IMG/VR virus record: IMGVR_UViG_3300025401_000012
DNA length: 64,000 nucleotides
Strand: one strand, 5' to 3'
DNA from: a virus
Lineage: Duplodnaviria; Caudoviricetes
In this document: positions 103 to 57,658 of the stretch, one piece after another
Layout of the letters: each line of letters begins with the position of its first letter
How positions within the stretch are numbered: the stretch's first letter is position 1
Program-made: the position numbers and the translations under genes
The notes under the pieces: model-generated
Told to the model about the DNA's origin: nothing
The model's database searches: none
What the model saw: the letters and a program-made list of their open reading frames with translations, nothing else

Positions 103-131
103 ATTGTATAGGGTTAAATGGTTAAAGTCAA
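103..131 (-). promoter_or_regulatory. sigma70-type promoter TTGACT-17-TACAAT
   Basis: -35 at 131-126, -10 at 108-103, 17-bp spacer; the ATG at 96 is 7 nt downstream of the -10 box. Confidence 0.7.
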
Positions 132-1669
132 TGATTTTTATAAATTTTCTTTTTCAAAAATTCCAAATTAGATGGAAGTGTTTTGGTATAATTGTCAATT
201 ATGGTTTTTCTCTTTTTCCATTCTTGGACAATATGTTTTAAAAATTCATAATTGATTTGATTTCGATCTTTTAATTGTTGTATCTTTAGATCAGATAACG
301 GGTTATATCCCATGCCAGATAAAATTCTAATATTAAAACTAAGCTGATTTGAATGTAAATCTAAATCAGTTGATAAATTTTTAAATTCGGTAGAATCTTC
401 TAAGTAGTCGATTTCTTCTGTCACATATTTCCAATAGTCGCTATCTTTTCTTTTGGAAAATGCATAATGTGCCGAAACAAAATCTCTCCAGCTATATAAT
501 TCTTGTTTCGATTGATTATTGAATATATCCTTGTCTATAGTATTGATAAAACAATCTTTTACTGACAATAAAGATATTGCTCTCATAATGTTGTTATGAG
601 TTACCATTAAACCTGTAGATCTTAATGGTTCTAAAAAACCAGAAGTTAGTCCTATAGCAAGCACATTCTTATACCATGATTTTTTTCTTACTCCGGGTTT
701 AAAACTAATAAATCTTGGTTCGATATTATCGGCTCGGTCCCCATATGTGATGCGTAATCCTTCTTTGAATTCTTGTAATGCTGTTTCGTCGTCGACAAAT
801 TTGCTAGAAAAAACATAACCAGCCCCAATTCTATCCCATACTGGGATATTCCATAACCAGCCATTTTTTAATGTTGTACAATCTGTCCACGAGTTTAATT
901 CTGTTTCTTTATCAACATACGGAATATTAGTAGCTATAGCTCTATCATTTATTAATTTGTTAGAAAAACTTTCAAAAGGAACTTCTAGTGTTTTTTCTAT
1001 TAAAGTAGCTTCAAACCCAGTGCAGTCAATGTATAAGTCGGACTTTAATGTACCATTATTTTTTGTAATAATACAATCTATTTCTCCTATACCATTTGTA
1101 CGACATTCTATTACATCGTCTTCTAAATGAATAACTCCGTTTGGTAATGCTACTTTTTCTTTTAATGTTAAACCAAATTTATAAGCATCCATATGATAGG
1201 CTTTATCGTATTTGAAATTCCAATTAAGGACATCGTTACGATCGGTTAGTTTATTCTGCACAATCATTTCGTGGGTATCGTCGAAATATTTAGAAAATTC
1301 AGTAATATCTATATCGGGATATATCTTTGATACTAAAAAGAAATCTACAGGGCTAAAGTTTTCTACTGAAGATGCTTCTGGTTTTAATACATCGTAATAA
1401 GATGATGATTCGCTTAAAAAATTTGTAAATTTAATAGATGTTTTGTAAGTAGCATTAGCCTGAGGCATCCAGTCTTCGTCTTCTATATCAAGCATTTCTA
1501 AATAATGATTAATTGTTGCTAGTGACGACTCGCCTACACCCATGATAGAAACATTTTTAGATTCTACTAATGTAATTTTTAACTGAGGAAATATTTTTGA
1601 AAACGCAGCTGCTGTCATCCATCCCGATGACCCGCCACCGACTATAGTAACTGAATTAATTTTTGACAT
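128..1669 (-). CDS. Tryptophan halogenase-like flavin-dependent enzyme (PrnA/RebH family)
   Basis: GGGSSG FAD motif, GVGES, ATYKxxIKF, IDCTGF, WxWxIP (WLWNIP), FLEPLxSTG. Confidence 0.85.
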   Translation of the reverse strand: MSKINSVTIVGGGSSGWMTAAAFSKIFPQLKITLVESKNVSIMGVGESSLATINHYLEMLDIEDEDWMPQANATYKTSIKFTNFLSESSSYYDVLKPEASSVENFSPVDFFLVSKIYPDIDITEFSKYFDDTHEMIVQNKLTDRNDVLNWNFKYDKAYHMDAYKFGLTLKEKVALPNGVIHLEDDVIECRTNGIGEIDCIITKNNGTLKSDLYIDCTGFEATLIEKTLEVPFESFSNKLINDRAIATNIPYVDKETELNSWTDCTTLKNGWLWNIPVWDRIGAGYVFSSKFVDDETALQEFKEGLRITYGDRADNIEPRFISFKPGVRKKSWYKNVLAIGLTSGFLEPLRSTGLMVTHNNIMRAISLLSVKDCFINTIDKDIFNNQSKQELYSWRDFVSAHYAFSKRKDSDYWKYVTEEIDYLEDSTEFKNLSTDLDLHSNQLSFNIRILSGMGYNPLSDLKIQQLKDRNQINYEFLKHIVQEWKKRKTIIDNYTKTLPSNLEFLKKKIYKNH

Positions 1670-1672
1670 AGG

Positions 1673-2575
1673 TCACCATTTAATATACCCTCTGCTATAA
1701 CCATTTGGGCGATTAGCTCCGTCTACAAATGCTTGTTCCCATTCATTGGTTCGATCATAACTTTTAGTCCAGAAATTATCGACTTCTAAGTAACCGTTTT
1801 CAATAAAATACTTGGCCATTTGCATACAATCAATAAATTTTGGATTACGAGGACTAGGTTTAACAGTAGTAACAGCTTTCCAAAGTTGAGATTGTGCTTC
1901 TTGTTTACTAACAGCTTTACCTACACCGTCGATGATTAATGCATTGTTATTTAGGTTAATCTGTGTGCCTAATTCATAATTTCCACTAAGATCCACAACA
2001 ACATCATAATTTTCAATAGTACTAGATTGTAACCTACTACCCCATAGTTCTTTATTGCTATGTCCTAACACATCTACATGAAATATATAACCATTTAGTC
2101 GCATAGCATGATAAGCAACCCATGCAAGGAATCCGCTGCCGATGATCAACATACGTGTATTTTCACTACGACCTTGCCTGTCTAATAATTGTTCTTTAGC
2201 TTGATTAATAAGATTAAGCCCACATGCAACTGGTTCTAAGATATATTTAGGTTCAGCTTCTGGAACTATTACAAATTCTTCAATACGTACATTATAATAA
2301 TCGGCATACGCAGGTTCTCCGCGTGTTGCTACAATATCACCTACATTAGTTTTAGCAACCCCTATTCCTACTTTAGTTACTATACCTAGCCCTTCGTGAC
2401 CTTGCATGTGTAAGGGCAAAGGACCAAAATCTCCCATCATCATGTCAATATCACTACGACAAACGCCAGTCATTAGAGCTTTAACTTCAATCTCATATTG
2501 CCCAGGCTCTGGTTTATCGTATTCAACTTCTTCAAACCAACCTTGACCTGTTGTTTGTAAACATTTTATTTTCAT
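1673..2575 (-). CDS. Zinc-binding medium-chain dehydrogenase/reductase (alcohol/sugar dehydrogenase-like)
   Basis: GVCRSD and GHEGLG catalytic-Zn motifs, Rossmann IIGSGFLA; start moved to MKIKC (2575), which gives an ATGA overlap with the upstream stop. Confidence 0.8.
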   Translation of the reverse strand: MKIKCLQTTGQGWFEEVEYDKPEPGQYEIEVKALMTGVCRSDIDMMMGDFGPLPLHMQGHEGLGIVTKVGIGVAKTNVGDIVATRGEPAYADYYNVRIEEFVIVPEAEPKYILEPVACGLNLINQAKEQLLDRQGRSENTRMLIIGSGFLAWVAYHAMRLNGYIFHVDVLGHSNKELWGSRLQSSTIENYDVVVDLSGNYELGTQINLNNNALIIDGVGKAVSKQEAQSQLWKAVTTVKPSPRNPKFIDCMQMAKYFIENGYLEVDNFWTKSYDRTNEWEQAFVDGANRPNGYSRGYIKW

Positions 2576-3453
2576 AAATTTTCTATTTGTTCGTGAATCC
2601 ATGTGTCGATGTCGACTTGTTTAAGCCAAAACTCGTAATCGTCTATTCGATTAACAGCTTCTGCAATCATAGCTTGATATGCGTCTTCTGGACATAAACC
2701 TAGTTCAAATGATTCTAACGAACCATCTGGCATAGTAAACATGATAACTCTGCTATCAAAATCATTAGTACGCCAGTTTGCTAATAAATTCCATTTGTCA
2801 GTAAATGTCATATAACATTCATCATCCACATCATATGTACCGTTAGGGTTAACAATACCGTAATCTGTTTGAGTTAATTGTTCTAGTTTCCAATTTGTCT
2901 TTGTACCGCTACTAATGCGTATGTCTTTACGCCATGCAGGATTTAATGCAATATATAAACTTAACAAATGTGGCATTAAATCTCGACTAACTCCTCCAAA
3001 CGCATATTTTTTAGTAGTAAACCAAGTACCAGGGTTAGGAACACGATCCTTATTAAGCCATAATAGATCTACACTAGCTGATTTTGTAGCTAATTTTTTT
3101 AAATCGTCAATATTACTCCGCCACATATTGTTTTTAACCATCATAAATCGTGTTTGCGGAAACGCTTCAAGCAGTCTTTTCCATGTAGTACTATTTGCAA
3201 CTCCGGGTTTTTCGATAAAAACAATTTTGCTATAGGGCGCTAGTTTGGCTGCTAATTCAAAATGTGTAAAATTAGGTGTGCAAATATGTACAGTATCGAA
3301 CATACGGCATGCTACAATAGCAGAGTCAACAGTTTGAAAATCTGCATTTTTGCTAGGGTCTGTATCAACAGTAATAACACTGTGCCCGAGATTATGTAGT
3401 ACATCTACATATAATTGTCCAATGCCCATGCCAACAACAAGACTAGTTTTCAT
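2572..3453 (-). CDS. Gfo/Idh/MocA-family NAD(P)-dependent oxidoreductase
   Basis: N-terminal VVGMGIG Rossmann motif, ICTPNFTH, FIEKPG signature. Confidence 0.8.
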   Translation of the reverse strand: MKTSLVVGMGIGQLYVDVLHNLGHSVITVDTDPSKNADFQTVDSAIVACRMFDTVHICTPNFTHFELAAKLAPYSKIVFIEKPGVANSTTWKRLLEAFPQTRFMMVKNNMWRSNIDDLKKLATKSASVDLLWLNKDRVPNPGTWFTTKKYAFGGVSRDLMPHLLSLYIALNPAWRKDIRISSGTKTNWKLEQLTQTDYGIVNPNGTYDVDDECYMTFTDKWNLLANWRTNDFDSRVIMFTMPDGSLESFELGLCPEDAYQAMIAEAVNRIDDYEFWLKQVDIDTWIHEQIENL

Positions 3454-3703
3454 TGTTAAATTCCTTTCCTTCTTCCCAGTATTTGATCATACGATGTACA
3501 TCTTCCATACGTTCTTGAACAACTTCTGGAGCTGCATGCTCTAATTGCTTCATAGTATGATACGATGGGAAATGTCGTAAGCACCAACGAGCTTGCTCAC
3601 GTATTTCTTTTGGTATACGTGGAGTTTTTTGAGGATTAGTTAAATCCTGTAAAAATTCCTCCGTAAGAAGTACAGATCGAAATCTTTCGTCAGGTAATGT
3701 CAT
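3443..3703 (-). CDS. Hypothetical phage protein
   Basis: 86-aa ORF overlapping both neighbours in the operon. Confidence 0.7.
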   Translation of the reverse strand: MTLPDERFRSVLLTEEFLQDLTNPQKTPRIPKEIREQARWCLRHFPSYHTMKQLEHAAPEVVQERMEDVHRMIKYWEEGKEFNNEN

Positions 3704-5393
3704 GTATACTAGCCTCTAATTCATCTAGTTTATCGGAAACTTCGTCAGAAAATTCTTCTTGCTCTTCGGATTGTACACTATCTTCTCCTACTACTACAAA
3801 TAATTCGGAAAACTTACCACTTGAATTAACGGTTTTCTTTCCTGTGGCACCACGTGTTCCGGGAATAGCTTGCCAAAATTTATCATATTTGTCGATGATA
3901 GCAATAGCAGATGCACGATCAGGAGCACTAAAAATGTCATCTACTACATCTCTAAAATAAACTCGATTAAATTTTTCATCAACTAACATAGCTGGGCAAA
4001 GACCTGCATCATATTGACGATTAGCTTCTTGTACACTATTCAAATGTAACCAAACATTATGCCCCATCATAATAGCATAGGTAAAACTATCCCATGATGT
4101 CTTACCTACTTTGCCTATTTTATTTAGATCATTAGGGCCATATATGCAAATTTCATTAACTTTAACTCCGTCCATTAATGGACTAGTTGTGAAACTGTCA
4201 AAATGTTTATCTTGTACTACCACATCTTTGAAGAGACGAGTATCCTTGGAATATTTTTTGTTGTCGAGACTTGGGAGCATACGATAGAGCCATTTGCCCC
4301 TGTCTTTAATTTCTGTTTGGACATAGATTTGTCCGTTTGCTGTTGCGAGGAACGGTGAGGCGCAATCAAAAGAGATGGTAAAGTTTTCATTATGGTATTT
4401 CCTTACAGCACGTTGTATATCAGTTAATAATAATGCCCACTCTAATTTAGAGGTGCCCAAGAAGTGCATCCAATCCTGATGACCCTTTTCAAGAAGGCCA
4501 TCAAATTTCAATGCCACTAATCTACGTAGTACTAGGTCGACATCGCACATGTTTTGTCCGCCCATACCCCAACCATTAAACGGTTTATCGTATTTTTTAG
4601 GATCGCAAAAATCCTTCATTTGTTGATACCAATCTTCCGCCTGGTCGTGATTTTCACCTTGTAATACATTTAGGAATTTACAAGCACCTGTGCGATGCTT
4701 AATAAAATATTCGTTGTTGTATTTGGTAGCTGCAACAGCTTGTGGATAATTAGCAATACCACTATTTTTAGCACCAACTGGACTTCGTCCAACCCATGCT
4801 GGTACATCAAGCACCATACCGTAATCCATAAGAGCATCCATCCATGCTAGTACTTGTTCACGCTTTTTCTGTGCAGCATCTAGTTTTGCTTGATAAATTT
4901 TAACATGATCAATTTTAGTATACTTAGGATTACCATTTTTATCTGTCTTAGGATGTCCTGTTGGATGTAATTGCGGAACTAACTCAACACCTTTCGCAAT
5001 GGCTTCGGCCATTCGTTGTGCAACTACAGGTCCGTTAGGATCATTCCATTCACCTTCCCATACACCTTTACCAATTTGGAAACCTCCAGAGTCGCCTAAC
5101 ACCCAACTAGTACTACGATCTCTATTACGGAACATATCTTCGCTTGGATCTGGTTTAGATAAATCTAAATTAGCATGACCAGCCGAATACAAGCAATGAT
5201 CGTAGTAAAAAGCTGCGTTAGGATCTAAATAGTTCATAGCTTCAATACCCATGTGCCCAAAGCTAGCTGGGATACGAGCAGGATCTACATAATTACCAAA
5301 ACGTTGTTTACCGATATACGTGCTATAGAATCCAGAAGTAGCCGGCAAAAAATATGCGTAATCGTTTTGTGTTGCTGTTAAATTTTTATTCAA
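3690..5393 (-). CDS. tRNA-guanine transglycosylase (TGT)/DpdA-fold base-exchange enzyme
   Basis: TGT core motifs in the expected order: GDSGGFQ, VLDVP, VLQG, GMGG, HFLG, SFDCASP; no C-terminal CxCxxC zinc site; TTG start. Confidence 0.75.
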   Translation of the reverse strand: MNKNLTATQNDYAYFLPATSGFYSTYIGKQRFGNYVDPARIPASFGHMGIEAMNYLDPNAAFYYDHCLYSAGHANLDLSKPDPSEDMFRNRDRSTSWVLGDSGGFQIGKGVWEGEWNDPNGPVVAQRMAEAIAKGVELVPQLHPTGHPKTDKNGNPKYTKIDHVKIYQAKLDAAQKKREQVLAWMDALMDYGMVLDVPAWVGRSPVGAKNSGIANYPQAVAATKYNNEYFIKHRTGACKFLNVLQGENHDQAEDWYQQMKDFCDPKKYDKPFNGWGMGGQNMCDVDLVLRRLVALKFDGLLEKGHQDWMHFLGTSKLEWALLLTDIQRAVRKYHNENFTISFDCASPFLATANGQIYVQTEIKDRGKWLYRMLPSLDNKKYSKDTRLFKDVVVQDKHFDSFTTSPLMDGVKVNEICIYGPNDLNKIGKVGKTSWDSFTYAIMMGHNVWLHLNSVQEANRQYDAGLCPAMLVDEKFNRVYFRDVVDDIFSAPDRASAIAIIDKYDKFWQAIPGTRGATGKKTVNSSGKFSELFVVVGEDSVQSEEQEEFSDEVSDKLDELEASIHDIT

Positions 5394-5565
5394 TTTTACC
5401 CCACTTAATCTTTAACCATATACGTTCGTGACCGTAATGGATTGCAGTCAATATTAAATGAATTAATATTGCATCACTTAATCCGGTCCATATCGCCGTA
5501 ATCATTAGAGCAATGACCCTGTAAGTAATTGCTCTAACGATAGTTCTTTTATGGAGTTCGACCAT
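5386..5565 (-). CDS. Small DUF2061-like membrane protein (59 aa), missed by the ORF track
   Basis: Manual translation MVELHKRTIVRAITYRVIALMITAIWTGLSDAILIHLILTAIHYGHERIWLKIKWGKIE; TAATG overlap with the clamp stop; HKRxxxxAxxYR...HERIW..IKWG resembles DUF2061. Confidence 0.7.
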   Translation of the reverse strand: MVELHKRTIVRAITYRVIALMITAIWTGLSDAILIHLILTAIHYGHERIWLKIKWGKIE

Positions 5566-6296
5566 TACTTGCTTTGTGCTGGAAGAATATATTCGTACAC
5601 TGCAATACCGCTATCAACAGTGATATTCAATGCACCTGCATCTGCAATACGCATAGTAATATCGCCAGACAAATTCAAAATACTCTGAACAGCAGTAACT
5701 GGCCAAGACCATGTTGATTTTAATTTTCCATCGATTCCTGCCTGGAATACAAAATTACCAGCATGTGTAGTCGCATCTCCAAAACTAAAAATTAAATTAT
5801 TGTCTTTGGTAGTTACTTGGAATGTTGGTTCTTCACTGTGCGAAGCTGATTGAAATTTAAAACGTTGTACACTAGCCATAGCTGGCTTAAATTCAATATC
5901 CCAACTAGTGCCTTTAAACTTAACAGTTTTAAGTTTTTCGTTAATAATATCTTGATTCATAAAACGATAATCGTTTTCAAAATCACCAGCACCATTTTGA
6001 AAGTGTAATCCTGTTGGAATTTCTTCACCGTTGCGTTGTTGTTTTACAACATCAATTGTGAAATTTTCTTTGTACTCTGGGCATTTCAACAGAATGTCTA
6101 ACTTGTTTAAGTTAGGCATACCAAACGTGCCTTCAAGTGAGTCTACAGTTTCTTTAGTTTTAGCGTTAAGAATAACACTACGATCTTCTGCCATTGATTC
6201 AATTACCGCTCCTTTTTCATTAGCTGTAATTTTTACAATTGGTAAAAATCCTAAACTGTGTGTATGTGCTACTAGGTCTTGTAAAAAGTCTTTCAT
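5565..6296 (-). CDS. DNA polymerase sliding clamp (T4 gp45-like), putative
   Basis: ~243 aa beta-rich protein with C-terminal YEYILP, near the PolB gene and with a clamp loader in the same window; start at MKDFL behind a GGAG RBS. Confidence 0.65.
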   Translation of the reverse strand: MKDFLQDLVAHTHSLGFLPIVKITANEKGAVIESMAEDRSVILNAKTKETVDSLEGTFGMPNLNKLDILLKCPEYKENFTIDVVKQQRNGEEIPTGLHFQNGAGDFENDYRFMNQDIINEKLKTVKFKGTSWDIEFKPAMASVQRFKFQSASHSEEPTFQVTTKDNNLIFSFGDATTHAGNFVFQAGIDGKLKSTWSWPVTAVQSILNLSGDITMRIADAGALNITVDSGIAVYEYILPAQSK

Positions 6297-6314
6297 AATA
6301 TTCTCCATGTTTTT

Positions 6315-6343
6315 ATTATATAGGTTCTGCGTGACTATGTCAA
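6315..6343 (-). promoter_or_regulatory. sigma70-type promoter TTGACA-17-TATAAT (clamp/TGT operon)
   Basis: Perfect consensus: -35 at 6343-6338, -10 at 6320-6315. Confidence 0.85.
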
Positions 6344-7111
6344 TGTTTTTCTAATTTTCTTATTATATTTTATTGCCGATTCTACAAGTGTATGTGAAAT
6401 CTGCAAACTATCTGCATAGTGTACAAATGCATTTGTATCTTTAGGGAAACATGCTCCACCAAAACCACGACTACCGTCTGGACCGGGAACTTGCATATGA
6501 CTGTTACCTATGCGTTCGTCTAATTGTAATAATTCAACAATCTTGTTATAGTCTGCGCCATTCATTTGGCACATGTCATATAACTGATTGAAGAACGCTA
6601 CTTTGACACTTAGGAAACAATTGGTAGCATATTTGACCATACTTGCTTCTGTTAGTGTACAATGCTCGATCTTATTTAGGTTTTTAAGCGAGACAATGAA
6701 TAATTCTCTCCAAATATTTCCGGGATTACTTCCGCCTAAAATCATATACTCCTGATTAGCAAAATCTTCGTTGGCACTAACCGCACGTAAAAATTCTGGG
6801 CTATAGGCAATACTATGATTGGGGTAGTTTACAAGTAATCTTTCTAGATAGTTTGGCGGCACTGTTGATTTAAGTAATACCGGTATATGCACAGGAACAG
6901 TATCCATTACTTGATATATTTGATTTACATCGCAATCCCCTGTTTCAGTGCTCGGTGTTCCTACACAAATAATTACTCCTTCAGCATCCGGATAATCTTT
7001 TACTGTTTGTTCGCTTATCTTTGGATCAACAATATATACTATGTTATTTTTATCTATGGCATTAGCAACAGCCTTGCCTACAAATCCATATCCTGCAATT
7101 ATAATTTTCAT
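6335..7111 (-). CDS. UDP-glucose/GDP-mannose dehydrogenase-like protein lacking the C-terminal domain
   Basis: IAGYGFVG, ICVGTP, LKSTVPP, YSPEFL, catalytic GFGGACFPKD; only ~258 aa. Confidence 0.85.
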   Translation of the reverse strand: MKIIIAGYGFVGKAVANAIDKNNIVYIVDPKISEQTVKDYPDAEGVIICVGTPSTETGDCDVNQIYQVMDTVPVHIPVLLKSTVPPNYLERLLVNYPNHSIAYSPEFLRAVSANEDFANQEYMILGGSNPGNIWRELFIVSLKNLNKIEHCTLTEASMVKYATNCFLSVKVAFFNQLYDMCQMNGADYNKIVELLQLDERIGNSHMQVPGPDGSRGFGGACFPKDTNAFVHYADSLQISHTLVESAIKYNKKIRKTLT

Positions 7112-7112
7112 A

Positions 7113-9782
7113 TTAAAACTCAAATAAACTGTTAAATGTATTTTTTTCTTCTGTACTATTGATGTCCCAATTTAATACACCAATTAAGTTATCTAACTTA
7201 TTATCGATAATAGTTTGTTCCATCTCAGCGTGATCAAATGCTAAGTCTTTGAACCACTGTGGTAACCTCAGTTCATCCACTGGATATGCAACTGATGTAA
7301 AACCTAACGGATTAGGTTTGAGTTTACAAACAATAACTTTTGCACCGTCTGTAATACCCATAGAATATTTGTCGTTATACATTCGTTTAAGAGTATTCCA
7401 ATTGATACTAGCACGAACGTGACCGGGCATATTAGCTTTACCTGCTTTGGCTTCTTTAGCTTGATAGTCGGTGATATTGTTAGCACGTTTAGGTGAACCT
7501 TTTTCCCAACCAGGTCTCCCTTTGAATTTAATTCTAAATTCACTAATCATATCTAACACTTCTTTTTCACCTTTGCCTAGTAATACCATTTCAAGAACAT
7601 CACTTAAAAAGTTTTGAATAAATTCTGGAGTATCACTACGCTTAAGATCTAAGCCCATGGCCTTAATTTTACCAGGTTTACCATCCACATCTGTACGTTT
7701 GCCTTCTTTATCATAATAAAGCACTGCATAGCGTTTCTTGGTAATAAACAATGCTTTACTTCCTACAATTTCTCTGCCTGCTCGTATAACTTCTCCTCGA
7801 GTTTTTGGACAATGAAATTGATCTAGCATAAATTGTGGGAATGTAGTATTAACTTCTTCACCAATTTGGTCGTATAAAGCAACAACTGTTTCTTTTGTCC
7901 ATGGAATCTTCCCAGCATCGATGTCTTTTTGAAGTGTTTTATATGCACTAAAATAGCACGAGTCAGTGTCTCCGTAGATGACAGCTTTGCCTTTGTGATC
8001 ATACTCACCGGCAATGATTTCATTTACTTTACTTGCCATATGTCGGACGATCTGGCGTCCTGTAAGTGTAGTTGATTGTCCAATACGTTTATCGAAGAAT
8101 CTGCACCCGCTATTAAGAATAGCACCATACAAACTGTTAAGATTAATCTTTTTAACAAGTTGTCGTTTGTCCCAATATTCTTCTTCAACTTTGTTTCCAG
8201 CTTTAATTGCATCTTTTAATTTGGCCTGCATTTCCTTACGTTCTGCATACCAACGCTTTAACAGCCCAGGAATAATACCTTCTTTTTCATAAGTGAAAAT
8301 AGTACCGTTTGCTGAAAGCATCCAAGGCTGATTGCTTTCGTAAATAAGTCTATAAACTTCTGCAGCACTTAAGATATCAGTTTCGCCATTTTCCCAATCG
8401 ATAGTTATATCAGTTCCAATCTCTTGATTCATTACAGCTTCATATTCTAAACTACCAAAGACACCTTCCCAAGATGCTGCAAAACTCTTGCCTTTCGCCA
8501 TTTGTAATTCGATAAATTCTTCTGTTTTTGTTTGTCGTAATTGTCCAATAATAGTCTCTGGACCCATATTTAATGCACGAATAGCTGACGGATACAGACT
8601 GTTAATATCTAAAGATCCAACCCAGTCTACAATGCCTTCTTTAGGAACTGCCACATACGCACCAGCCGCAGCCGTATTTTCTTCTCGGTCGTCTTTCTTA
8701 ATACGATTAGGAACTTGAAAACCTCTGCGGTGTGCTTCGTTAATAATAGCTTGTTCAGTGACGGCCACAGCGCCCATTGTAGTTTGCAACAATACTGTAT
8801 TTTCATGTGCTAGTGTGTTAGCAAGATCCATGAACTTTAATTTTTTATCTAAATCGTCAAGAAGTTTACAGTCATTAATATTATATTCAACAAATGTTTT
8901 AAAATCATTATTGTATAGTTGATCAAGTGTACCTTCGTATTGTGTTTTACGTTGACCCAATTCATATTCTGCAATAGCATCTAGTCTATAACTATGTCGT
9001 TCTTCGTATGTATACTTGCGATATAATTCGAGATAATCTAAATGTACACGACCGACATAATCGTAAGTTGTACTAGTACGACCGTATTTTTCGTATTCGC
9101 GTTTTTTAGGTAATTGATCAAATAAACAAAATCGTCTAGTATCTTCTTTACTCAATGCCTTGATGACACGATTAGTAGTATAAGGCACGTCAAATCCTTC
9201 GCTATTCCAACCACTAATAACATCAGCATCTTGTATAAGATCTAAGAACATGCTTAATAAATCTGCTTCGTTATCGAACAAATAAGTATTGGGAAAGTCC
9301 TTAACCATTTCCTTAGCTTCTTCCATCTTAAGACCTTTAGGCGGAATAGCTAAACATACCATAGTTTCCAACCATTGTAAGTAGACAGCAATCGCAGTGA
9401 TTGGCATAAATGCATCGTCTGGACTAGCATAGCCACGCTCCGGATCAAAGTCTACCTCAATATCAAAGAACGCTGTGTGTAATTTAGGAGGATCTTGGTT
9501 AAGATAATGTTCGCTTAGTGTTACAAAGATTGGATTAATATCAGACTCATATAAAGTCTTGCCGCTATTAATGGCTTGTTCTTTGCGTAGTTCTTTTGTA
9601 TTTTTACAAACAATACGTGTAAGTGTATCACCGTAGATTGATTGAAATTTGCCCTTAGGGTCTTTGACGTAAAATGTGTGCTTGACAGGAATGTCTCGAA
9701 ATTCACGTTCACCTTTTTTGTTACGTTCAACAACTCGAATGATATCATTCTCGCGGTCAAACCATGCGTCTACATACGACAT
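7113..9782 (-). CDS. Family B DNA polymerase (T4 gp43-like)
   Basis: Exonuclease motifs FFDIEV, GWNSEGFD, YNINDC; polymerase motifs SLDINSLYPS, KINLNSLYG, YGDTDS, KKRY. Confidence 0.97.
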   Translation of the reverse strand: MSYVDAWFDRENDIIRVVERNKKGEREFRDIPVKHTFYVKDPKGKFQSIYGDTLTRIVCKNTKELRKEQAINSGKTLYESDINPIFVTLSEHYLNQDPPKLHTAFFDIEVDFDPERGYASPDDAFMPITAIAVYLQWLETMVCLAIPPKGLKMEEAKEMVKDFPNTYLFDNEADLLSMFLDLIQDADVISGWNSEGFDVPYTTNRVIKALSKEDTRRFCLFDQLPKKREYEKYGRTSTTYDYVGRVHLDYLELYRKYTYEERHSYRLDAIAEYELGQRKTQYEGTLDQLYNNDFKTFVEYNINDCKLLDDLDKKLKFMDLANTLAHENTVLLQTTMGAVAVTEQAIINEAHRRGFQVPNRIKKDDREENTAAAGAYVAVPKEGIVDWVGSLDINSLYPSAIRALNMGPETIIGQLRQTKTEEFIELQMAKGKSFAASWEGVFGSLEYEAVMNQEIGTDITIDWENGETDILSAAEVYRLIYESNQPWMLSANGTIFTYEKEGIIPGLLKRWYAERKEMQAKLKDAIKAGNKVEEEYWDKRQLVKKINLNSLYGAILNSGCRFFDKRIGQSTTLTGRQIVRHMASKVNEIIAGEYDHKGKAVIYGDTDSCYFSAYKTLQKDIDAGKIPWTKETVVALYDQIGEEVNTTFPQFMLDQFHCPKTRGEVIRAGREIVGSKALFITKKRYAVLYYDKEGKRTDVDGKPGKIKAMGLDLKRSDTPEFIQNFLSDVLEMVLLGKGEKEVLDMISEFRIKFKGRPGWEKGSPKRANNITDYQAKEAKAGKANMPGHVRASINWNTLKRMYNDKYSMGITDGAKVIVCKLKPNPLGFTSVAYPVDELRLPQWFKDLAFDHAEMEQTIIDNKLDNLIGVLNWDINSTEEKNTFNSLFEF

Positions 9783-9864: not shown

Positions 9865-10122
9865 TTAGATACGTTTTGTAATATCTAAAATAGCTTCAAT
9901 TTCTTCCCAATCTGCATTATAAGCCTGCCAATCGCCTTTATGTGCAATTTTAATTGCACGATTGATAACACTTGGTTTTACTTGTAATTCTTCTGCTACA
10001 GCCTTAACTGTTTCTTTTAAACCTTCTTGTAAATCTTCAACTTCACGCAGAACAGTTGAACCTTCTGCAATCAAACGTTCTAATTTTGCCTTTTCTTCGG
10101 GACCATAACTACGACCTGACAT
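9865..10122 (-). CDS. Small helical dsDNA-binding protein (T4 DsbA/GapR-like), putative
   Basis: 85 aa; pattern LERLIAE...LKETVKAVAEELQVKPSVINRAIK. Confidence 0.5.
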   Translation of the reverse strand: MSGRSYGPEEKAKLERLIAEGSTVLREVEDLQEGLKETVKAVAEELQVKPSVINRAIKIAHKGDWQAYNADWEEIEAILDITKRI

Positions 10123-20361: not shown

Positions 20362-20976
20362 CTAGGCTTTAAGTATGCGTTCAATCTTGCTTATACTACT
20401 ACCCAAGTGCATTTTTGCCAATAATAAGTTGTTATCGCCTGTAATATAAAAGTGTGTACCACCCCAACTGCGCGGCTTTTGTAAATCTCTGATACAACTT
20501 TTAGTTAGCTTGCATTTTGTACTTTTATCAGCCCATTCGATAAATGCAGGGTTAGGTTGTGTAGTCTTACCCAATGTAACTCTAAAATCATAATTTATTT
20601 TAGGCATTATGATTGTATCGGATGTTAAATTATTACCTGCTGGTTCGCAAATATACTTTACCCTGCTGGCATCTAATTTAGCTAGTTTTTCTACGTCTTT
20701 TTTATTGTTAGAATACACACTTATCCACGGACTTTCTACTCGCAAATCTATATCTGCCATTTTAGATAATTCGCTAGCTAATGAAATAGCATATATTTTA
20801 TCGGCTAACGTCTTAATAGAGCTAGATCGGTGAGGGATTGTGTTAGATGAATTTAATTCATCTATAATAGCACTAAATTCTTTATTTCGAAAGAACCCTG
20901 AACCACTGCATACCAGTACAATTTTGTACTGGTATACTCCTCTAAACAATTTTGTAGTAAGTTTTTTACGTAACAT
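20362..20976 (-). CDS. Hypothetical protein
   Basis: 204-aa ORF overlapping the clpA stop. Confidence 0.7.
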   Translation of the reverse strand: MLRKKLTTKLFRGVYQYKIVLVCSGSGFFRNKEFSAIIDELNSSNTIPHRSSSIKTLADKIYAISLASELSKMADIDLRVESPWISVYSNNKKDVEKLAKLDASRVKYICEPAGNNLTSDTIIMPKINYDFRVTLGKTTQPNPAFIEWADKSTKCKLTKSCIRDLQKPRSWGGTHFYITGDNNLLLAKMHLGSSISKIERILKA

Positions 20977-23245
20977 TTAAATCTACTAATGATGGTGCAT
21001 TATCTACAGTTAAAAGTTGTACTTTTGATTCCTTAGGAGTAGATACTAACAATAACTTATTGTCGGTTACAGTAATACTTAACAAACCGCCGTTCTTAAG
21101 TTCACCAAACAACATTAATTTAGCCAACGGACGTTTGATTTCTTTATCAATAACACGTTGTAACGGACGAGCACCCATTTTAGGATCAAATCCGTTAGTA
21201 ATAAGCCAGTTAGTACTTTCCTTATCTAGTTTAATCTTGATACCCTTTTCTTTAACTTGAGCACGAAGTTCGTCCATGAATTTAACAATAACTTTAGTCA
21301 TTGATTCTTTGCCCAATCTGTTAAATGTCATGATACCGTCTAAACGATTACGGAATTCTGGTGTAAAGAATTTCTTTAAATCTTTATCACTGTATTCTCT
21401 ATCCTGTGTACCAAACCCAATTGTATTCTTTTCAGCATCTTGTGCACCAGCGTTGGTAGTAAGAATAAGAATTAAGTTACGGCAATCTGCTCGTTTACCG
21501 TTTGAACCAGTAATAAAACCATTATCCATCATTTGTAATAATACTGTTGTAACATCTGGGTGAGATTTTTCAACTTCATCAAACAACAGAACAGCATTTG
21601 GATTTTCTTGTATTTGTGTAATTAGTAATCCGGCATTTTCTTCAAATCCAACATAACCCGGAGGGCTACCGATTAGCTTAGAGATGCTATGCTTCTCTTG
21701 GTATTCTGACATATCAAACCGTAATAGTTTAACACCTAGATGCTTGGCAAGCGACTTGGCAGTTTCAGTCTTACCGCAACCGGTTGGCCCCATGAACACA
21801 AACGATCCAATTGGTTTATTTTCTGATTTTAATCCTGCTTGTGCAACCATAATTTTATCTACAACTTCTGTAATAGCAAGATTTTGCCCGTACACTTCTG
21901 CTTGTAAATTAGTTTCTAAAGTAGCAAGATTGCTAGATTCAGTTTCCATAATTTTTTCTTCAGGCATTTGAATCATTTTAGCAAGCTCAAATTGAATCTC
22001 GTGCTCACCGATTACACGTTCTTCTGCAATTTTAAGATTAAAACGCGAGCATGCTACATCAATTAAATCAATAGCTTTGTCTGGAAGTTTTTTATCTGTT
22101 TGATATTTGACAGATAATTTAACAGCTGCCTGCAATGCATCATTACGAATTTTAACATTGTGGAATGTTTCGTAATACTTTTTAATACCCTGTAATATGC
22201 TTAAAGTCATTTCTTGTGTAGGTTCATCGACTGTTATGCGTTGGAAACGACGCATTAATGCACGATCCTTTTCAAAATGCTTACGATATTCTTCCCATGT
22301 TGTGCTAGCAATGACTTTAATATTGCCTTTACTTAGTGCAGGCTTCATCATATTAGCAAGATCGTTAGAACTATTTCCGGCACTGCCTGCACCAGAGATC
22401 ATGTGTGCCTCGTCAATGAATAATACAGTCTTACCTTTCTTTTGTAGAGCTTTGATAACATGTTTAAAACGTTCTTCAAAGTCTCCGCGATATTTAGATC
22501 CAGCTAACATAGCTGAAATATCTAAACTATATACTTTGTAATCTTTTAGGAAATCAGGAACATGCCCTTTGACAATATTATAAGCAAGTCCTTCTGCTAT
22601 AGCAGTTTTTCCTACGCCAGGATCGCCTACTAAGATTACATTGTTTTTGCTACGACGACCTAATGCTAACGCAATGTTTTCTAATTCATCAATACGCCCG
22701 ATAACCGGATCAACTTTTTGTTTTTCTACTAGATCATTTAAGTTACTAGTAAATGCTTTCAACGCTCGATCACTTTGTGAATCTTGTGGACCTTCTTCAT
22801 CTTCGGAAGTATCATTTACATTGTTTAGGTAATCTGCAAACTTATCTTTATCTATTTTGGCTTTATTAATATAGTAATAAGACCAGCTACGTTTTTCACC
22901 GATCATTGCTAAAAATACATCGGTAGGTTCGATTTTCTGTCTGCCATTAAACAGTACTTGTGTAAATGCACGATTAAGCACACGTTCAACACTTTGTGTT
23001 TTTTTAGGTTTAACAACAACATCTTCAATAGTAATTTCTTGGCACTTGTGGTGTAGATAATTGGCCAAATCATCTTTTAATTCTGCAAGATTTGCACCGA
23101 ATCCTTCTATAGTATTACTAAAAGTTTCATCTGCTAACATAGAAAATAACAAATGTTCAATTGTTAGATATTCGTGATGTAATTTTTTAGCTGTATCTAT
23201 TGCACGTTCAAATACAGCTTGTAAGTTATCACTTGGTTCAACCAT
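20966..23245 (-). CDS. clpA: ClpA-like AAA+ unfoldase (Hsp100)
   Basis: Clp N-domain (HEYLTIEHLL), Walker A GDPGVGKT and GPTGCGKT, Walker B FIDEAH and LFDEVEK, pore loops KYRG and GYVG, IGF ClpP-docking loop; no ClpB middle domain. Confidence 0.92.
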   Translation of the reverse strand: MVEPSDNLQAVFERAIDTAKKLHHEYLTIEHLLFSMLADETFSNTIEGFGANLAELKDDLANYLHHKCQEITIEDVVVKPKKTQSVERVLNRAFTQVLFNGRQKIEPTDVFLAMIGEKRSWSYYYINKAKIDKDKFADYLNNVNDTSEDEEGPQDSQSDRALKAFTSNLNDLVEKQKVDPVIGRIDELENIALALGRRSKNNVILVGDPGVGKTAIAEGLAYNIVKGHVPDFLKDYKVYSLDISAMLAGSKYRGDFEERFKHVIKALQKKGKTVLFIDEAHMISGAGSAGNSSNDLANMMKPALSKGNIKVIASTTWEEYRKHFEKDRALMRRFQRITVDEPTQEMTLSILQGIKKYYETFHNVKIRNDALQAAVKLSVKYQTDKKLPDKAIDLIDVACSRFNLKIAEERVIGEHEIQFELAKMIQMPEEKIMETESSNLATLETNLQAEVYGQNLAITEVVDKIMVAQAGLKSENKPIGSFVFMGPTGCGKTETAKSLAKHLGVKLLRFDMSEYQEKHSISKLIGSPPGYVGFEENAGLLITQIQENPNAVLLFDEVEKSHPDVTTVLLQMMDNGFITGSNGKRADCRNLILILTTNAGAQDAEKNTIGFGTQDREYSDKDLKKFFTPEFRNRLDGIMTFNRLGKESMTKVIVKFMDELRAQVKEKGIKIKLDKESTNWLITNGFDPKMGARPLQRVIDKEIKRPLAKLMLFGELKNGGLLSITVTDNKLLLVSTPKESKVQLLTVDNAPSLVDLNVT

Positions 23246-23247
23246 TA

Positions 23248-23742
23248 TTATTTCTTCCTTTGTTGTTTTCTTAATTTTTTAATTGCCAATGCTAGCTTTA
23301 ATGGACTTAGTTTACTAGTAAAACAAATTCCATTTAAATGATCTAACTCATGTTGGAAACATCTAGCATCCCACCCGGTTAATTCTATTATACATTCTTT
23401 TCCATTTCTGTCAAAGTATTTGGCCGTTAATTGTTTGTATCTTTTTACTGATAACCATAGGTTGGGGAAACTTAAACAACCTTCATTACCATCGACTAAT
23501 TCGGTATCTGTTATTAGTATACTAGGATTAAACATACAAAATGGAACTTGATTATCCAATGCAATAGCAAAAACACGTTTAAGTATTCCCACTTGATTAG
23601 CCGCTAACCCGCGACCATTATTAGTAATCATGGCTTGTACCATATCGATTTCTAATTCTTTTGCATTTAGGTCTTTTTCAAAATTCCACTCTGCAGATTG
23701 TTGTTTTAAAACAGGGTCTGTATCTTTAACTAATTTGAGCAT
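23248..23742 (-). CDS. def: Peptide deformylase
   Basis: GRGLAANQVG, EGCLS and HELDHLNG motifs. Confidence 0.95.
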   Translation of the reverse strand: MLKLVKDTDPVLKQQSAEWNFEKDLNAKELEIDMVQAMITNNGRGLAANQVGILKRVFAIALDNQVPFCMFNPSILITDTELVDGNEGCLSFPNLWLSVKRYKQLTAKYFDRNGKECIIELTGWDARCFQHELDHLNGICFTSKLSPLKLALAIKKLRKQQRKK

Positions 23743-24589
23743 TTAGTTCTTTTAATTTTGTTACTAACACAGGATCTGTGACTGCAGGAGTTTTAATTTT
23801 AATAACGCTTACAAATCTTCCTCTGTGTCCATTATTTACATTAGTAAATCCGTTTCCATTACTGGCAAATTCTACACCTGATTCTATACCAGGTCTAAGA
23901 TCCAAATCCATTGTATCGCCGGTAATTGTTCTGACTGTTTTTTTACAACCAATCATAGCTTCGATAGGAGTAATATTTACTGTAGCATATAAATCATCTC
24001 CACGTCTTTCAAAATTAGGATCTGACTGAACTATAATAGTTACATTGAGATTGCCACGTGGCGCATTTTGTACACTATCATCACCTAAGCCGTTATATCT
24101 AATAGTATCACCGTTGGCAATGCCAGCAGGCACATTAATTTTTACTGTTTGATTGCGTCCACTAGGTAATTGAAAATTAGCTTCTAATGATTTTCCAAGA
24201 TAAGAATCTATAAAACTTACAGTACATTGTATATTCAAATCTCTATTTCGACGCATATGACCACCGCGCATATGACCAAATATATCGCCAAACGGGCTAC
24301 CTTGCCCAAACGGATCAAATGCTCCGCCAAAAGGATTTCCTGTATTAAAGTGGAATTGAGTCCCACCAAATCCGCCACCAGGCATTCCGCCGTACATCCG
24401 TTGTTGATCGTATTCAGCTTTCTTCTGCGGATCGCTTAGATTTTCATATGCAACAGAAATATCTTTAAACTTGGCCTGATCACCGCCTTTGTCGGGATGA
24501 TGTTTATTAGCCAAGCTTCGGTACGCTTTTTTAATTTCATCTGGGCTAGCATTTTCGCTAACACCTAGTGTTTGGTAATAATCGCTCAT
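23726..24589 (-). CDS. DnaJ/CbpA-type (class B) co-chaperone
   Basis: J-domain with HPD, G/F-rich region, C-terminal domain; no zinc finger. Confidence 0.92.
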   Translation of the reverse strand: MSDYYQTLGVSENASPDEIKKAYRSLANKHHPDKGGDQAKFKDISVAYENLSDPQKKAEYDQQRMYGGMPGGGFGGTQFHFNTGNPFGGAFDPFGQGSPFGDIFGHMRGGHMRRNRDLNIQCTVSFIDSYLGKSLEANFQLPSGRNQTVKINVPAGIANGDTIRYNGLGDDSVQNAPRGNLNVTIIVQSDPNFERRGDDLYATVNITPIEAMIGCKKTVRTITGDTMDLDLRPGIESGVEFASNGNGFTNVNNGHRGRFVSVIKIKTPAVTDPVLVTKLKELNAQIS

Positions 24590-35933: not shown

Positions 35934-36191
35934 TTACCATGTTCCAGCATCATACGTGTGCCTCTTCCAAATATTAGTAGTACCGTCATACGATGCTGTG
36001 CAGTAGTAAAAATATACAGAATCAAACGCAACCATTCCTGCTATATCGCCTGTTTTACCAGTACTGTGAGTAGGCACAATTTGCGGGTATAAATCAGCAA
36101 AATTTGCATTTACCTTACCAAATGCTACACGAATAGTATCTGCACCTGTAGCATTTGGTGTTGCGCCGATGTTTATATTTTGTTGAGTCAT
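35934..36191 (-). CDS. Miniature fibre-like protein (N-terminal attachment motif plus C-terminal motif)
   Basis: INIGATPNATGADTIRVAFGKVNANF and GMVAFDSVYFYYC...IWKR, both paralogous to the ends of 34832..35914. Confidence 0.65.
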   Translation of the reverse strand: MTQQNINIGATPNATGADTIRVAFGKVNANFADLYPQIVPTHSTGKTGDIAGMVAFDSVYFYYCTASYDGTTNIWKRHTYDAGTW

Positions 36192-51743: not shown

Positions 51744-51998
51744 ATGTTAAAATTTATCAAAAGTTTCTTTAAAAAGCAAGAAGCATCTGTTGCTGAATAT
51801 AAAGTAGAAGCACCAGCACCAGTTGTTGACGTTGCACCAGTTCCAGCCGGCACACCGCTAGTAAACGATGCTGGTGTAGTTGTTGCTATTGCTGATGGAA
51901 AACCTGCTAAAGGCCCTAAGGTTAAGAAAGAGCCAGCGGCTAAAAAAGCATCAGCTGTTAAGAAACCACGTAAGCCTAAAACGCCTAAAGCAGAGTAA
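51744..51998 (+). CDS. Small Ala/Lys/Pro-rich protein with a histone-like basic tail
   Basis: 84 aa, GGAGG RBS, KKEPAAKKASAVKKPRKPK tail. Confidence 0.7.
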   Translation: MLKFIKSFFKKQEASVAEYKVEAPAPVVDVAPVPAGTPLVNDAGVVVAIADGKPAKGPKVKKEPAAKKASAVKKPRKPKTPKAE

Positions 51999-53010
51999 GT
52001 TCTTTAGCCTGCTCGTAAAGCGCAAAGCTGGCTAGATTCTTGCCCTTGCTTTCGCACATGATATCGTGCGTACCTAAAAAGCTCAATGCCCATTCATTCG
52101 TTGCTGTGTTCCAGTAAAAGTCTGAATGTGCTCTGAGCTTTTGCTTTTTGTAGCCTTCTAGAATAAGCTGGGCATGAACAGGTGCGGTAGACTGGTCGTG
52201 GTCGATAAGATAATCCTCACGACTAACTGAATAGTGACAAGTAGGCCGCATACCACGCCAGCTATCAACAACCCTCTTAACACGGTCATCGTTGGCGTTA
52301 ATGTACTCTCCCTCTCGGATCCAATGATGATGTATATCGAGGACAATAGGAACAACATCACTAATAGTAAGACAATCATTTAACCCCCATGAGTTTTCTT
52401 CGTTCTCAATTGTAATACAGTTGCGGGCCTCGGGTGTGAGTAACTTGTAGGCACGTCTAATACCTTCGGGACCTTGTTTACCCGAGATGTGTACGTTGAT
52501 TTTGAAATCCTGGAAGGATTTACCATAGCCCATGTAACGTGCCATATCTGCATGATATTCAAACTCGGCTATCGAACGCTCGACAATGCCAGGGTTATCA
52601 CTTGCCAGAACTGTAAACTGACCAGGATGCATAGACAAGCGAATATTACTATTGCGAGCAATGTCGCCCACTCGCGCAAAGTGCTTTTCGCAGTATGATA
52701 CAACGTCAGGTTTACGCCAATAATCAGCAAAGTCAGCGTGAGTATAAGCAGGGAGAATGTCACTGCTAATCCTAACCATCCTAAGAGGAGCATCAAGGGT
52801 GCTGACACGTTCGACTAGTTTCCTTGTTGATTCGATATTGCCTACCATTAGGTCCCATAGTTTCTGCTCCGCGACATCTCTTGATTGTTTATTTAACCAA
52901 GAAATAGTAGTTGTACCTGTATTATACTGTTTGGCATCGTCATCTTTGCCAATACCATTGACCTGATGAGGATGGTCAATCCATTTACATGCGAAGCCTA
53001 TACGTTTCAT
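51985..53010 (-). CDS. UV-damage endonuclease (UvdE/UvsE family)
   Basis: RIGFACK, MVRISS, MHPGQF, IENEE, LDIHHHW, HYS, HSDF; start set at MKRIGF. Confidence 0.9.
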   Translation of the reverse strand: MKRIGFACKWIDHPHQVNGIGKDDDAKQYNTGTTTISWLNKQSRDVAEQKLWDLMVGNIESTRKLVERVSTLDAPLRMVRISSDILPAYTHADFADYWRKPDVVSYCEKHFARVGDIARNSNIRLSMHPGQFTVLASDNPGIVERSIAEFEYHADMARYMGYGKSFQDFKINVHISGKQGPEGIRRAYKLLTPEARNCITIENEENSWGLNDCLTISDVVPIVLDIHHHWIREGEYINANDDRVKRVVDSWRGMRPTCHYSVSREDYLIDHDQSTAPVHAQLILEGYKKQKLRAHSDFYWNTATNEWALSFLGTHDIMCESKGKNLASFALYEQAKELTLL

Positions 53011-53210
53011 TACCAATGCCTTATGACGCCTGCGATTATAAAAGTGTTTGTAAGTACATATGATAACACAATTAAGGTACGAATGCAAGCAATTCGGTCC
53101 GATTCCTTGTCCGTGTTGCCTGCTTTCTCACCTAATGCTTTGGCCCAAAGGCGCCAAAAATACTTAACCTTCGTACGTAGCCGAATTAGCACCGTGTTCA
53201 AATACTTCAA
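53010..53210 (-). CDS. Small membrane protein; start uncertain
   Basis: WRLWAKALGEK...IRTLIVLSYVLTN..IIAGVIRHW with one TM helix; TAATG-coupled to the UV endonuclease. Confidence 0.6.
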   Translation of the reverse strand: MKYLNTVLIRLRTKVKYFWRLWAKALGEKAGNTDKESDRIACIRTLIVLSYVLTNTFIIAGVIRHW

Positions 53211-53649
53211 CTGATTTAACTCTTACTGTTGGGTTAATTGGGTAGCGTTGATTGCCATTTACTAATAAGTCTGCCATTTTGTCATATGCCATTTTGGCAA
53301 ACATTTCACAGCCTACACCTTCCACAATACGTAAATCGCACAAGCCGCTATCATTGAATCCACCTTTAATTTCATTTAACTGTTTGAATGTTTCAAGATG
53401 GGGATCGTCTTCTGCAATAACTAAAGTGTGATCAAACATATAGTCTGCCCACGCTTTGAATTCTTTGAGTCCGCCAAAGTCCATGCACCAGTTTTTGTCA
53501 TCTAGTGTGTCACATTCAAAGATTAATTTGATGCCAATTGAGTACCCATGTAGCGTTGAGCAATGACTGTGTGTGGCACGCCATTGTCTAAAACAGCATG
53601 AAAGTCCGCGATCATTTCCGTAAGTTTTTGTAGAGTAAAATTTTGCCAT
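53164..53649 (-). CDS. queD: 6-pyruvoyl-tetrahydropterin synthase/QueD-like T-fold protein
   Basis: HCSTLHGY, DFGGLK, FDHT, CEMFA, VEVFEH (T-fold Glu). Confidence 0.75.
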   Translation of the reverse strand: MAKFYSTKTYGNDRGLSCCFRQWRATHSHCSTLHGYSIGIKLIFECDTLDDKNWCMDFGGLKEFKAWADYMFDHTLVIAEDDPHLETFKQLNEIKGGFNDSGLCDLRIVEGVGCEMFAKMAYDKMADLLVNGNQRYPINPTVRVKSVEVFEHGANSATYEG

Positions 53650-57650: not shown

Positions 57651-57658
57651 GTAAGTAA

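Follow-up and report, generated by a model that had tools for sequence, protein, structure and literature searches.

In Cellulophaga phage phiST, dG is fully replaced by 2'-deoxy-7-deazaguanosine (PMC10516641), and the gene set of phiST and Campylobacter phage CP220, which lacks QueC, accompanies complete replacement of G by dDG or dADG (PMC10516641). This set includes DpdL, a QueD-like T-fold protein in which LxxxHRHxF replaces the CxxxHGH signature and which is the proposed decarboxylase of 7-carboxy-7-deazaguanine (CDG; PMC10516641). The described transglycosylases include DpdA3 of phiST and CP220 and DpdA2 of Vibrio phage nt-1; in the literature we found neither a more recent DpdA subfamily nor a connection of any DpdA with a sliding clamp. 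Here, we describe a protein of 567 amino acids (aa) with the fold of a tRNA-guanine transglycosylase (TGT), which is encoded on the minus strand at 3690..5393, from a TTG start, in a 64,000-nucleotide stretch of viral DNA (IMG/VR record IMGVR_UViG_3300025401_000012; hereafter the window). An earlier note on this DNA had read the protein as a DpdA-type candidate for placing 7-deazaguanine in DNA. We found that this reading is well supported by the fold, the active site, the genomic context and an independent report on phage PA5oct, and that the protein belongs to a large phage family without a name, which is in effect a further DpdA-like lineage.

Fold, active site and family of the enzyme

The 567-aa protein has no match to any Pfam, NCBIfam or PHROG model, and neither phmmer nor a profile of 52 homologues found anything meaningful for it among PDB sequences. 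The AlphaFold2 model that we built on these 52 homologues has a pLDDT of 91 and a pTM of 0.89, and its structure matches in the PDB are exclusively bacterial TGT, archaeosine TGT (ArcTGT) and eukaryotic QTRT1 (Foldseek probability 1.0; VIA Z 17-18, with about 300 residues aligned at 14% identity). The residues that are invariant in the 52 diverse homologues include D101, S102 and G104, with D101 in a DSGGFQ motif; D196 in LDxP; H310 and G313 in HFLG; and D343 in FDC. When the family was aligned to E. coli TGT by hhalign (probability 90%, E 1.4e-6), D101, D196 and D343 fell on D89, D143 and D264, and the LQG and GG base-binding motifs also lined up. The codons of the three catalytic Asp residues lie on the minus strand at 5091-5093 (D101), 4806-4808 (D196) and 4365-4367 (D343). 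The zinc motif CxCxxC...H is absent from the sequence, there is no conserved Cys/His set at that place in the 52 homologues, and the enzyme model has no PUA domain. The model and the alignments confirm that the protein has a TGT fold with the core catalytic motifs and without the zinc site of tRNA-acting TGTs, as the earlier note had stated. That note had also suggested that a base other than guanine might be exchanged; the TGT residues that read guanine-like bases are conserved, which speaks against this. PF01702 has no match in the window protein, and two of the 52 homologues reach only E 0.043; in an hmmscan search against Pfam, the DpdA models match neither the window protein nor the 52 homologues.

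An exhaustive search placed 925 representatives at 50% identity in the family. A search of the collection made at 90% identity gave more than 7,500 clusters, none of them named or with a Pfam domain and nearly all from environmental viruses. The only isolated phages that carry the enzyme are PA5oct-like Pseudomonas jumbo phages, Vibrio phage 2.275.O and Sinorhizobium phage Phosso; all of these proteins are annotated as hypothetical, and the PA5oct enzyme is 30% identical to the window enzyme. In the ESM Atlas, the structural neighbours are viral 'hypothetical protein' clusters first, followed by a TGT cluster and a DpdA cluster, and in one neighbouring cluster 13% of the members have PF23859. 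A tblastn search at 1e-5 gave no link between the window enzyme and nt-1 DpdA2. The family profile found DpdA2 weakly in the nt-1 genome (E 3.8e-5, 18.6 bits), and hhalign aligned the two with a probability of 93%; the family is related to E. coli TGT with roughly the same strength. With phiST DpdA3, hhalign gave a probability of 64% over 83 columns, and a family profile search of CP220 gave no match. On these profile comparisons, the family appears to be distantly related to DpdA2.

The sliding clamp and the tail of the enzyme

Upstream of the enzyme gene, at 5565..6308 on the minus strand, there is a gene for a 247-aa protein resembling PCNA and gp45. Its model has a pLDDT of 91, every one of its 50 best matches in the PDB is a PCNA or a viral clamp (TM 0.6-0.73), and its neighbours by language model are named clamp; by its fold, the protein is a two-domain sliding clamp. 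We found a clamp homologue upstream of the enzyme, either adjacent or within three short open reading frames (ORFs), in PA5oct, in 2.275.O and in four metagenomic lineages. In both PA5oct (221902-222648) and Phosso (322429-323151), the gene that occupies the place of the clamp bears the annotation 'structural protein', which in PA5oct rests on virion mass spectrometry. The PA5oct gene product is 35% identical to the window clamp, and the Phosso gene has no BLAST match to the window clamp at 1e-3.

The C-terminal tail of the enzyme is acidic and disordered, with a pLDDT below 50 for residues 515-546, and within it lies a putative clamp-binding peptide, G-K-F-S-E-L-F-V-V-V (residues 526-535; 3789..3818, minus strand). 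In T4-family DNA polymerases, the C-terminal peptide is the element that docks on the clamp, as in gp43 on gp45 and in the RB69 peptide-clamp structure. The window encodes a family B DNA polymerase (PolB; T4 gp43-like) at 7113..9782 on the minus strand, and its C-terminal peptide, T-F-N-S-L-F-E-F (7116..7139, minus strand), belongs to the same F-x-x-L-F motif class as the enzyme tail. This motif class is common to the PolB and enzyme tails not only of the window but also of PA5oct (PolB H-F-D-S-L-F-G-W, transglycosylase S-F-N-S-L-F-D-V), 2.275.O (N-T-D-L-F-D-W and N-N-D-L-F-G-W) and lineage L100 (K-F-E-S-L-F-D and T-F-D-G-L-F-D). Near the C-terminus, the motif is present in three of the 54 ORFs of the window: PolB, the enzyme, and a hydrophobic, probably membrane ORF whose LMAFF we discounted. 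Across the family it is present in 41 of 98 full-length tails, as compared to 17.6 expected from shuffled tails; it often stands at the very end of the tail, and many members have it further inside. In the tails of nt-1 DpdA2 and phiST DpdA3, we found no F-x-x-L-F motif. A putative clamp-binding peptide common to PolB and the transglycosylase is new here and is absent from the earlier note.

We then modelled the clamp together with tail residues 505-567. The predicted complex has an ipSAE of 0.68, as compared to 0.01 for the best of three controls. Among solved complexes, 58 of 80 reach this mark, as do 2 of 110 mismatched pairs; because many PCNA-peptide complexes have been solved, the result indicates resemblance rather than measured binding. 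The runs agreed in at least 46% of contacts, with a partner pLDDT of 45-46, and the predicted interface lies between tail residues 526-535 and the interdomain loop (123-130) and C-terminal strand (237-242) of the clamp. These predictions suggest that the enzyme tail probably docks on the phage clamp. We do not claim that the PolB peptide and the enzyme tail co-evolve, as co-variation within the same genome is clear only in 2.275.O. In a separate observation, a 200-aa ORF in a relative (L075:14251-14853), at a place that in the window's genome lies beyond the left edge of the window, between p179 and a DpdL-like gene, ends in N-Y-Q-N-L-F-E-E, of the same motif class, and has a V-E-V-K stretch reminiscent of PD-(D/E)xK nucleases; judging from this ending, its product may be another clamp client.

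Base synthesis, accessory genes and genome setting

Eighty related viral contigs share the gene order of the run. In 2.275.O, the enzyme gene is followed by QueF, YhhQ, QueC, an amidotransferase-like (Gat) gene and FolE; Supplementary Data 1 of Hutinet 2019 lists FolE, QueD, QueE, QueC and YhhQ for this phage, with the DpdA and DpdA2 columns empty (PMC6884629). QueC is two genes downstream of the enzyme in a lineage of 47% identity, and FolE with a purine phosphoribosyltransferase (PRTase) is found within 10 kb of the enzyme in lineages of 58%, 45% and 41% identity. In total, FolE, QueE-like, DpdL-like, QueC, QueF or YhhQ genes lie within 10 kb of the enzyme in at least six lineages. The cluster to the left of the window was studied in relatives only. 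In relatives of 79-90% identity, the DNA past the left edge of the window holds DpdL-like, PRTase, FolE and QueE-like radical-SAM genes. The five best NCBIfam matches of the QueE-like protein are all QueE models. The DpdL-like protein has 132 aa and the LxxxHRHxF signature, a motif that we found in 19 related loci, and the L075 copy is 34% identical to phiST DpdL (gp040; E 1e-16). In the window itself, the QueD-like gene that the earlier note had placed at 53164 is confirmed by a PTPS match of 58.6 bits (53164..53649, minus strand); this T-fold protein has C-x3-H-G-Y in place of C-x3-H-G-H.

In two relatives whose genomes are essentially complete (383 kb and 356 kb), we found FolE and a PTPS gene but neither QueC nor a PF01702 protein. 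The genomes of PA5oct, 2.275.O and Phosso all have FolE and likewise have no PF01702 match. The pathway genes for which the earlier note had pointed to the rest of the genome were found in part when relatives were searched: folE, queE-like genes and a GT-B glycosyltransferase are present, and queC is absent from the complete relatives. PA5oct DNA is reported to resist cleavage at five G-containing restriction sites, from which a modified G was inferred; the same paper mentions genes for QueE and PTPS without identifying a transglycosylase (PMC12191111). The DpdA-type reading is thus supported by the fold, the catalytic residues and the recurrent pathway neighbours, as well as by the report of modified G in PA5oct and by the lack of a canonical TGT or DpdA in the complete relatives, PA5oct, 2.275.O and Phosso. 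In PA5oct and 2.275.O, the present family provides the sole TGT-fold candidate and is the obvious candidate for the transglycosylase. Because the QueC-less, DpdL-bearing gene set mirrors that of phiST, our best guess by analogy is that the inserted base is 7-deazaguanine or a CDG derivative.

The three radical-SAM genes in the window (56523-57650, 60679-61863 and 61860-63089, minus strand) were considered as candidates for QueE and rejected, as all encode twitch-domain radical-SAM proteins that match NF033640 at 187-283 bits. They flank a 2-oxoglutarate (2OG) oxygenase resembling Asp/Arg beta-hydroxylases (57659-58396) and two ORFs without matches, and the cluster at 56523-63089 looks like one for peptide or metabolite maturation, unrelated to QueE. 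In two lineages, an IMPDH/GMP-reductase-family gene (L101:5469-6515) and a small kinase-like gene (L099:7337-7777) lie beside FolE and PRTase, which hints at a rerouting of purine nucleotides tied to the pathway.

Three oxidoreductases are encoded in the same minus-strand run as the enzyme, and all three keep their cofactor and catalytic motifs. A nucleotide-sugar-dehydrogenase-like protein (UDP-glucose-dehydrogenase-like, UGDH-like; 262 aa, truncated; 6335..7123, minus strand) has the Rossmann and catalytic-Cys domains; it matches the N-terminal and central domains of UDP-glucose/GDP-mannose dehydrogenases, and retains both GxGxxG and the catalytic-Cys motif G-A-C-F-P-K-D, but the C-terminal UDP-binding domain is missing. 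The stretch described in the earlier note ends at the ATG of this gene, at 7111. On the other side of the enzyme are a Gfo/Idh/MocA-type oxidoreductase (Gfo; 2572..3453, minus strand; 33 bits, EKP motif) and a Zn-dependent medium-chain dehydrogenase/reductase (MDR; 1673..2602, minus strand; ADH_N 39 bits) with Cys and GHE zinc ligands and GSGFLA. Gfo and MDR follow the transglycosylase in all of the 80 related contigs that extend far enough; however, this synteny proves little because the close clade shares 78-93% PolB identity. About ten of the 80 contigs lack the UGDH-like gene or have it elsewhere. In PA5oct there is a contiguous Gfo-MDR-p179 block (Gfo, EST35_0362; MDR, EST35_0363), full length and with 33%, 38% and 42% identity to the window genes, which is 27 kb from the transglycosylase. 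In 2.275.O and Phosso, we searched for Gfo and MDR and found neither. The association of dehydrogenases with the enzyme that the earlier note had drawn, and the co-occurrence of TGT, MDR and Gfo that it implies, therefore hold for the close clade, to which adjacency is limited, and for the PA5oct block, and do not extend to Phosso or 2.275.O; its UGDH-like part is present in the window and is lost or moved in several close relatives. On these gene comparisons a role for the dehydrogenases is possible; it is better supported than by synteny alone, and it is unproven.

The link to sugar chemistry is better supported by another gene than by the dehydrogenases. In six lineages (PA5oct, L099, L094, L100, L101 and the window's clade), the transglycosylase is followed by a gene for a protein of 353-396 aa; BLAST connects this family across all six, and Glycos_transf_1 is matched in all six, being top-ranked in three, with one member above threshold. 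This GT-B glycosyltransferase follows the enzyme in QueC-less lineages. The annotation of the Phosso neighbour as a primase was considered for this gene and rejected for the other lineages, which form one family with Glycos_transf_1 matches; the gene after the enzyme encodes a Toprim protein in Phosso and is different again in 2.275.O. In its place, other lineages encode SDR epimerase/dehydratases, a 2OG oxygenase or a protein resembling IMPDH. The sampled carriers are of two kinds: those with QueC (2.275.O, which also has QueF, and the 47% lineage) and those with GT-B and DpdL, in which PA5oct and the window's clade are confirmed to have Gfo and MDR as well. It thus looks as if a core that stays constant (clamp, transglycosylase, DpdL, FolE, QueE and PRTase) is joined by a tailoring cassette that varies, and additional tailoring of the base by the accessory genes is plausible from this gene content.

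At the left end of the run, at 128..1669 on the minus strand, there is a gene for a flavin-dependent halogenase of 513 aa (Trp_halogenase family), which has the FAD motif (GGGSSG) and the WxWxIP signature of these enzymes (WLWNIP). Inserted into the cassette in this phage only and absent from both essentially complete relatives, it was rejected as a conserved component of the cluster. Another halogenase of this family, only 24% identical, lies directly after the transglycosylase in the L086-L088 lineage; this arrangement is suggestive of two independent insertions into the same cassette. A pyrrolopyrimidine is electron-rich, like the rings that halogenases attack, and it is speculation that the base is the target here.

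The remaining genes of the run are small. A hydrophobic 59-aa ORF between the clamp and the enzyme (5386..5565, minus strand) is a predicted membrane protein whose presence varies among relatives; the ORF exists as the earlier note had it, and the DUF2061-like label given to it is below the Pfam cut-off (E 0.017, 16 bits). Downstream of the transglycosylase is an 86-aa ORF without assigned function (3443..3703, minus strand), which is kept in the close clade. All genes of the run that the earlier note had listed are on the minus strand and at the positions it gave. The window phage is a jumbo myovirus; its PolB is 48.6% identical to that of Phosso and 45.6% identical to that of Agrobacterium phage Atu_ph07, and a search of isolated phages at the nucleotide level gave no relative of the window. 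PolB is interrupted by a homing endonuclease in PA5oct (L001 4012-5694) and by an intein in the 47% lineage. Just upstream of PolB in the window is a gene for a DNA-binding protein resembling T4 DsbA, of late transcription (9865-10122, minus strand), and a UvdE UV-damage endonuclease (137 bits; 51985-53088, minus strand) adjoins the QueD-like gene. At 20966-24589 (minus strand), genes for a ClpB-like double AAA+ chaperone, a peptide deformylase and DnaJ stand in tandem and are a phage module of protein folding and maturation. A single ORF of 4761 aa (36191-50476, minus strand) has zero Pfam matches at E <= 1, and its product may be a giant virion or injected protein.

Proposed mechanism, rival explanations and comparison with described systems

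Taken together, these data suggest a mechanism in which the enzyme most likely exchanges guanine in phage DNA for a 7-deazaguanine base. As in TGT, D343 would be the nucleophile, and D101 and D196 would bind the base. The base would be made from GTP by phage FolE, a QueD-like T-fold enzyme and a QueE-like radical-SAM enzyme; because there is no QueC, the pathway would stop at CDG, which the DpdL-like protein would convert to 7-deazaguanine or a derivative, and the purine PRTase of the same cluster may recycle the released guanine. The acidic tail peptide would dock on the PCNA-like clamp encoded just upstream, in which case base exchange would be coupled to replication. Gfo, MDR, GT-B and, in this phage, the halogenase would form an accessory set that may modify the base further or supply a sugar donor for it. 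By exchanging the base during copying, the phage probably hides its DNA from nucleases of the host. We consider it fairly likely that this reading is correct as a whole, with DpdA-like exchange on DNA, a phage-made base, probable docking on the clamp and an accessory set. We place the enzyme in a new and very abundant DpdA-like lineage that is distinguished by a probable clamp tether. That installation at the clamp is combined with a novel derivatisation is unlikely; this would be either glycosylation by GT-B, with donors shaped by Gfo, MDR and the UGDH-like protein, or, in this phage and the L086 lineage, halogenation of the pyrrole, a route that is supported by the independent insertion of 24%-identical halogenases into the same cassette.

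Several observations weigh against the reading that we favour. The family has no zinc site, stays below threshold with PF01702 and matches no DpdA model. The clamp-peptide prediction may owe part of its success to a resemblance to solved PCNA-PIP complexes, and the fold of the partner is uncertain. The window tail is a moderate match to the PolB peptide, and its best 8-mer score is reached by 67 of 2000 shuffled tails; PolB and tail pairs from the same genome are not generally the best-scoring, and only 2.275.O is striking (0 of 2000). FolE and the QueE-like, DpdL-like, PRTase and GT-B genes were seen outside the window, in relatives of 79-90% identity, and Phosso has the enzyme and FolE without QueC, Gfo or MDR. 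The modification of G in PA5oct rests on restriction resistance reported in a preprint, not on mass spectrometry. Finally, unsubstituted 7-deazaguanine offers no obvious glycosyl acceptor, which leaves GT-B and the dehydrogenases without an evident role.

In its fuller form, the reading of the earlier note makes the dehydrogenases core to the system, with Gfo, MDR, the UGDH-like protein and a glycosyltransferase building a base that carries a sugar or cyclitol. The placement of Gfo and MDR directly after the enzyme in every sufficiently long close relative, the 33-42% identical block in PA5oct, the GT-B gene after the enzyme in PA5oct, L099, L094, L100, L101 and the window's clade, the SDR epimerase/dehydratases and 2OG oxygenase at the same position elsewhere, and the intact cofactor and catalytic motifs of the oxidoreductases are all consistent with this. 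However, the PA5oct block is 27 kb from the enzyme, 2.275.O and Phosso are without Gfo and MDR, the UGDH-like protein lacks its UDP-binding domain and its gene is missing or moved in several close relatives, synteny within a clade of 78-93% PolB identity is expected by descent alone, and an acceptor chemistry on 7-deazaguanine is not evident; we regard this fuller reading as possible and hold it only tentatively. A different activity, that of a phage TGT acting on host or phage tRNAs, would agree with the nearest solved structures, which are tRNA enzymes, and jumbo phages often carry tRNA genes. Against this, the protein has neither a zinc subdomain nor a PUA domain, its gene keeps a fixed place between that of the clamp and other genes of replication, the tail bears a polymerase-like clamp peptide, and PA5oct DNA appears to be modified at G without another DpdA candidate in that phage, which makes a tRNA substrate highly improbable.

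The base could also enter DNA during synthesis, if the PRTase makes a deazapurine nucleotide that PolB incorporates, leaving the TGT-fold protein a role in salvage, in proofreading of unmodified G or as a non-catalytic part of the replisome. In four lineages, a purine PRTase gene occurs together with FolE close to that of the enzyme, and in two of these four there are kinase-like and IMPDH/GMP-reductase-like genes nearby. Recycling of released guanine would explain the PRTase equally well, however, and phiST likewise has a PRTase beside DpdA3. The catalytic Asp and the base-binding residues are invariant across the 52 members, which argues for an active transglycosylase, and every phage known to have 7-deazaguanine encodes DpdA (PMC10516641). 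We therefore judge incorporation by PolB to be improbable and prefer base exchange on DNA by a DpdA-like enzyme.

If exchange by a clamp-bound DpdA-like enzyme is correct, the missing transglycosylase of the PA5oct-like jumbo phages and of 2.275.O is named, a very abundant lineage is added to the DpdA enzymes, and there is a first concrete mechanism by which post-replicative base exchange could keep pace with replication, by riding on the sliding clamp. PA5oct can be grown in the laboratory and offers a system in which to identify the modification of G, which is possibly glycosylated. Such modifications decide whether a phage escapes restriction, CRISPR and END-type defences, and this escape matters for the choice of therapy phages and for the enzymes used on modified DNA.

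Among the known systems, bacterial TGT (Z. mobilis, E. coli; PF01702) resembles the window enzyme in its (beta/alpha)8 barrel, its Asp nucleophile and its two base-binding Asp residues. In contrast, the window enzyme has no zinc site and no Pfam match, has large insertions at residues ~120-170 and 360-430, ends in an acidic tail with a clamp peptide, and probably acts on DNA. DpdA2 of Vibrio phage nt-1 (YP_008125322; PMC6884629) is also a divergent phage TGT-fold protein (~460-570 aa) set among 7-deazaguanine synthesis genes, and it can be aligned with the window enzyme at the motifs DSGG-x-Q, xDExP/LDxP, H-x-LG and (F/Y)D(C/S); however, identity over the core is ~22%, DpdA2 has no F-x-x-L-F tail, and its gene is not beside PolB and a clamp. 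DpdA3 of phiST and CP220 is much shorter (259 aa, as compared to 567 aa in the window enzyme; PMC10516641), although the accompanying set of FolE, QueD, QueE, DpdL and PRTase, without QueC, is alike. As in the clamp peptides of T4-family polymerases, a short hydrophobic L/F-F motif belongs to a flexible acidic tail, and its predicted place is beneath the interdomain connecting loop of the clamp; whereas in the polymerases the motif ends the tail, in the present family it is borne by a base-modifying enzyme and is often internal to the tail.

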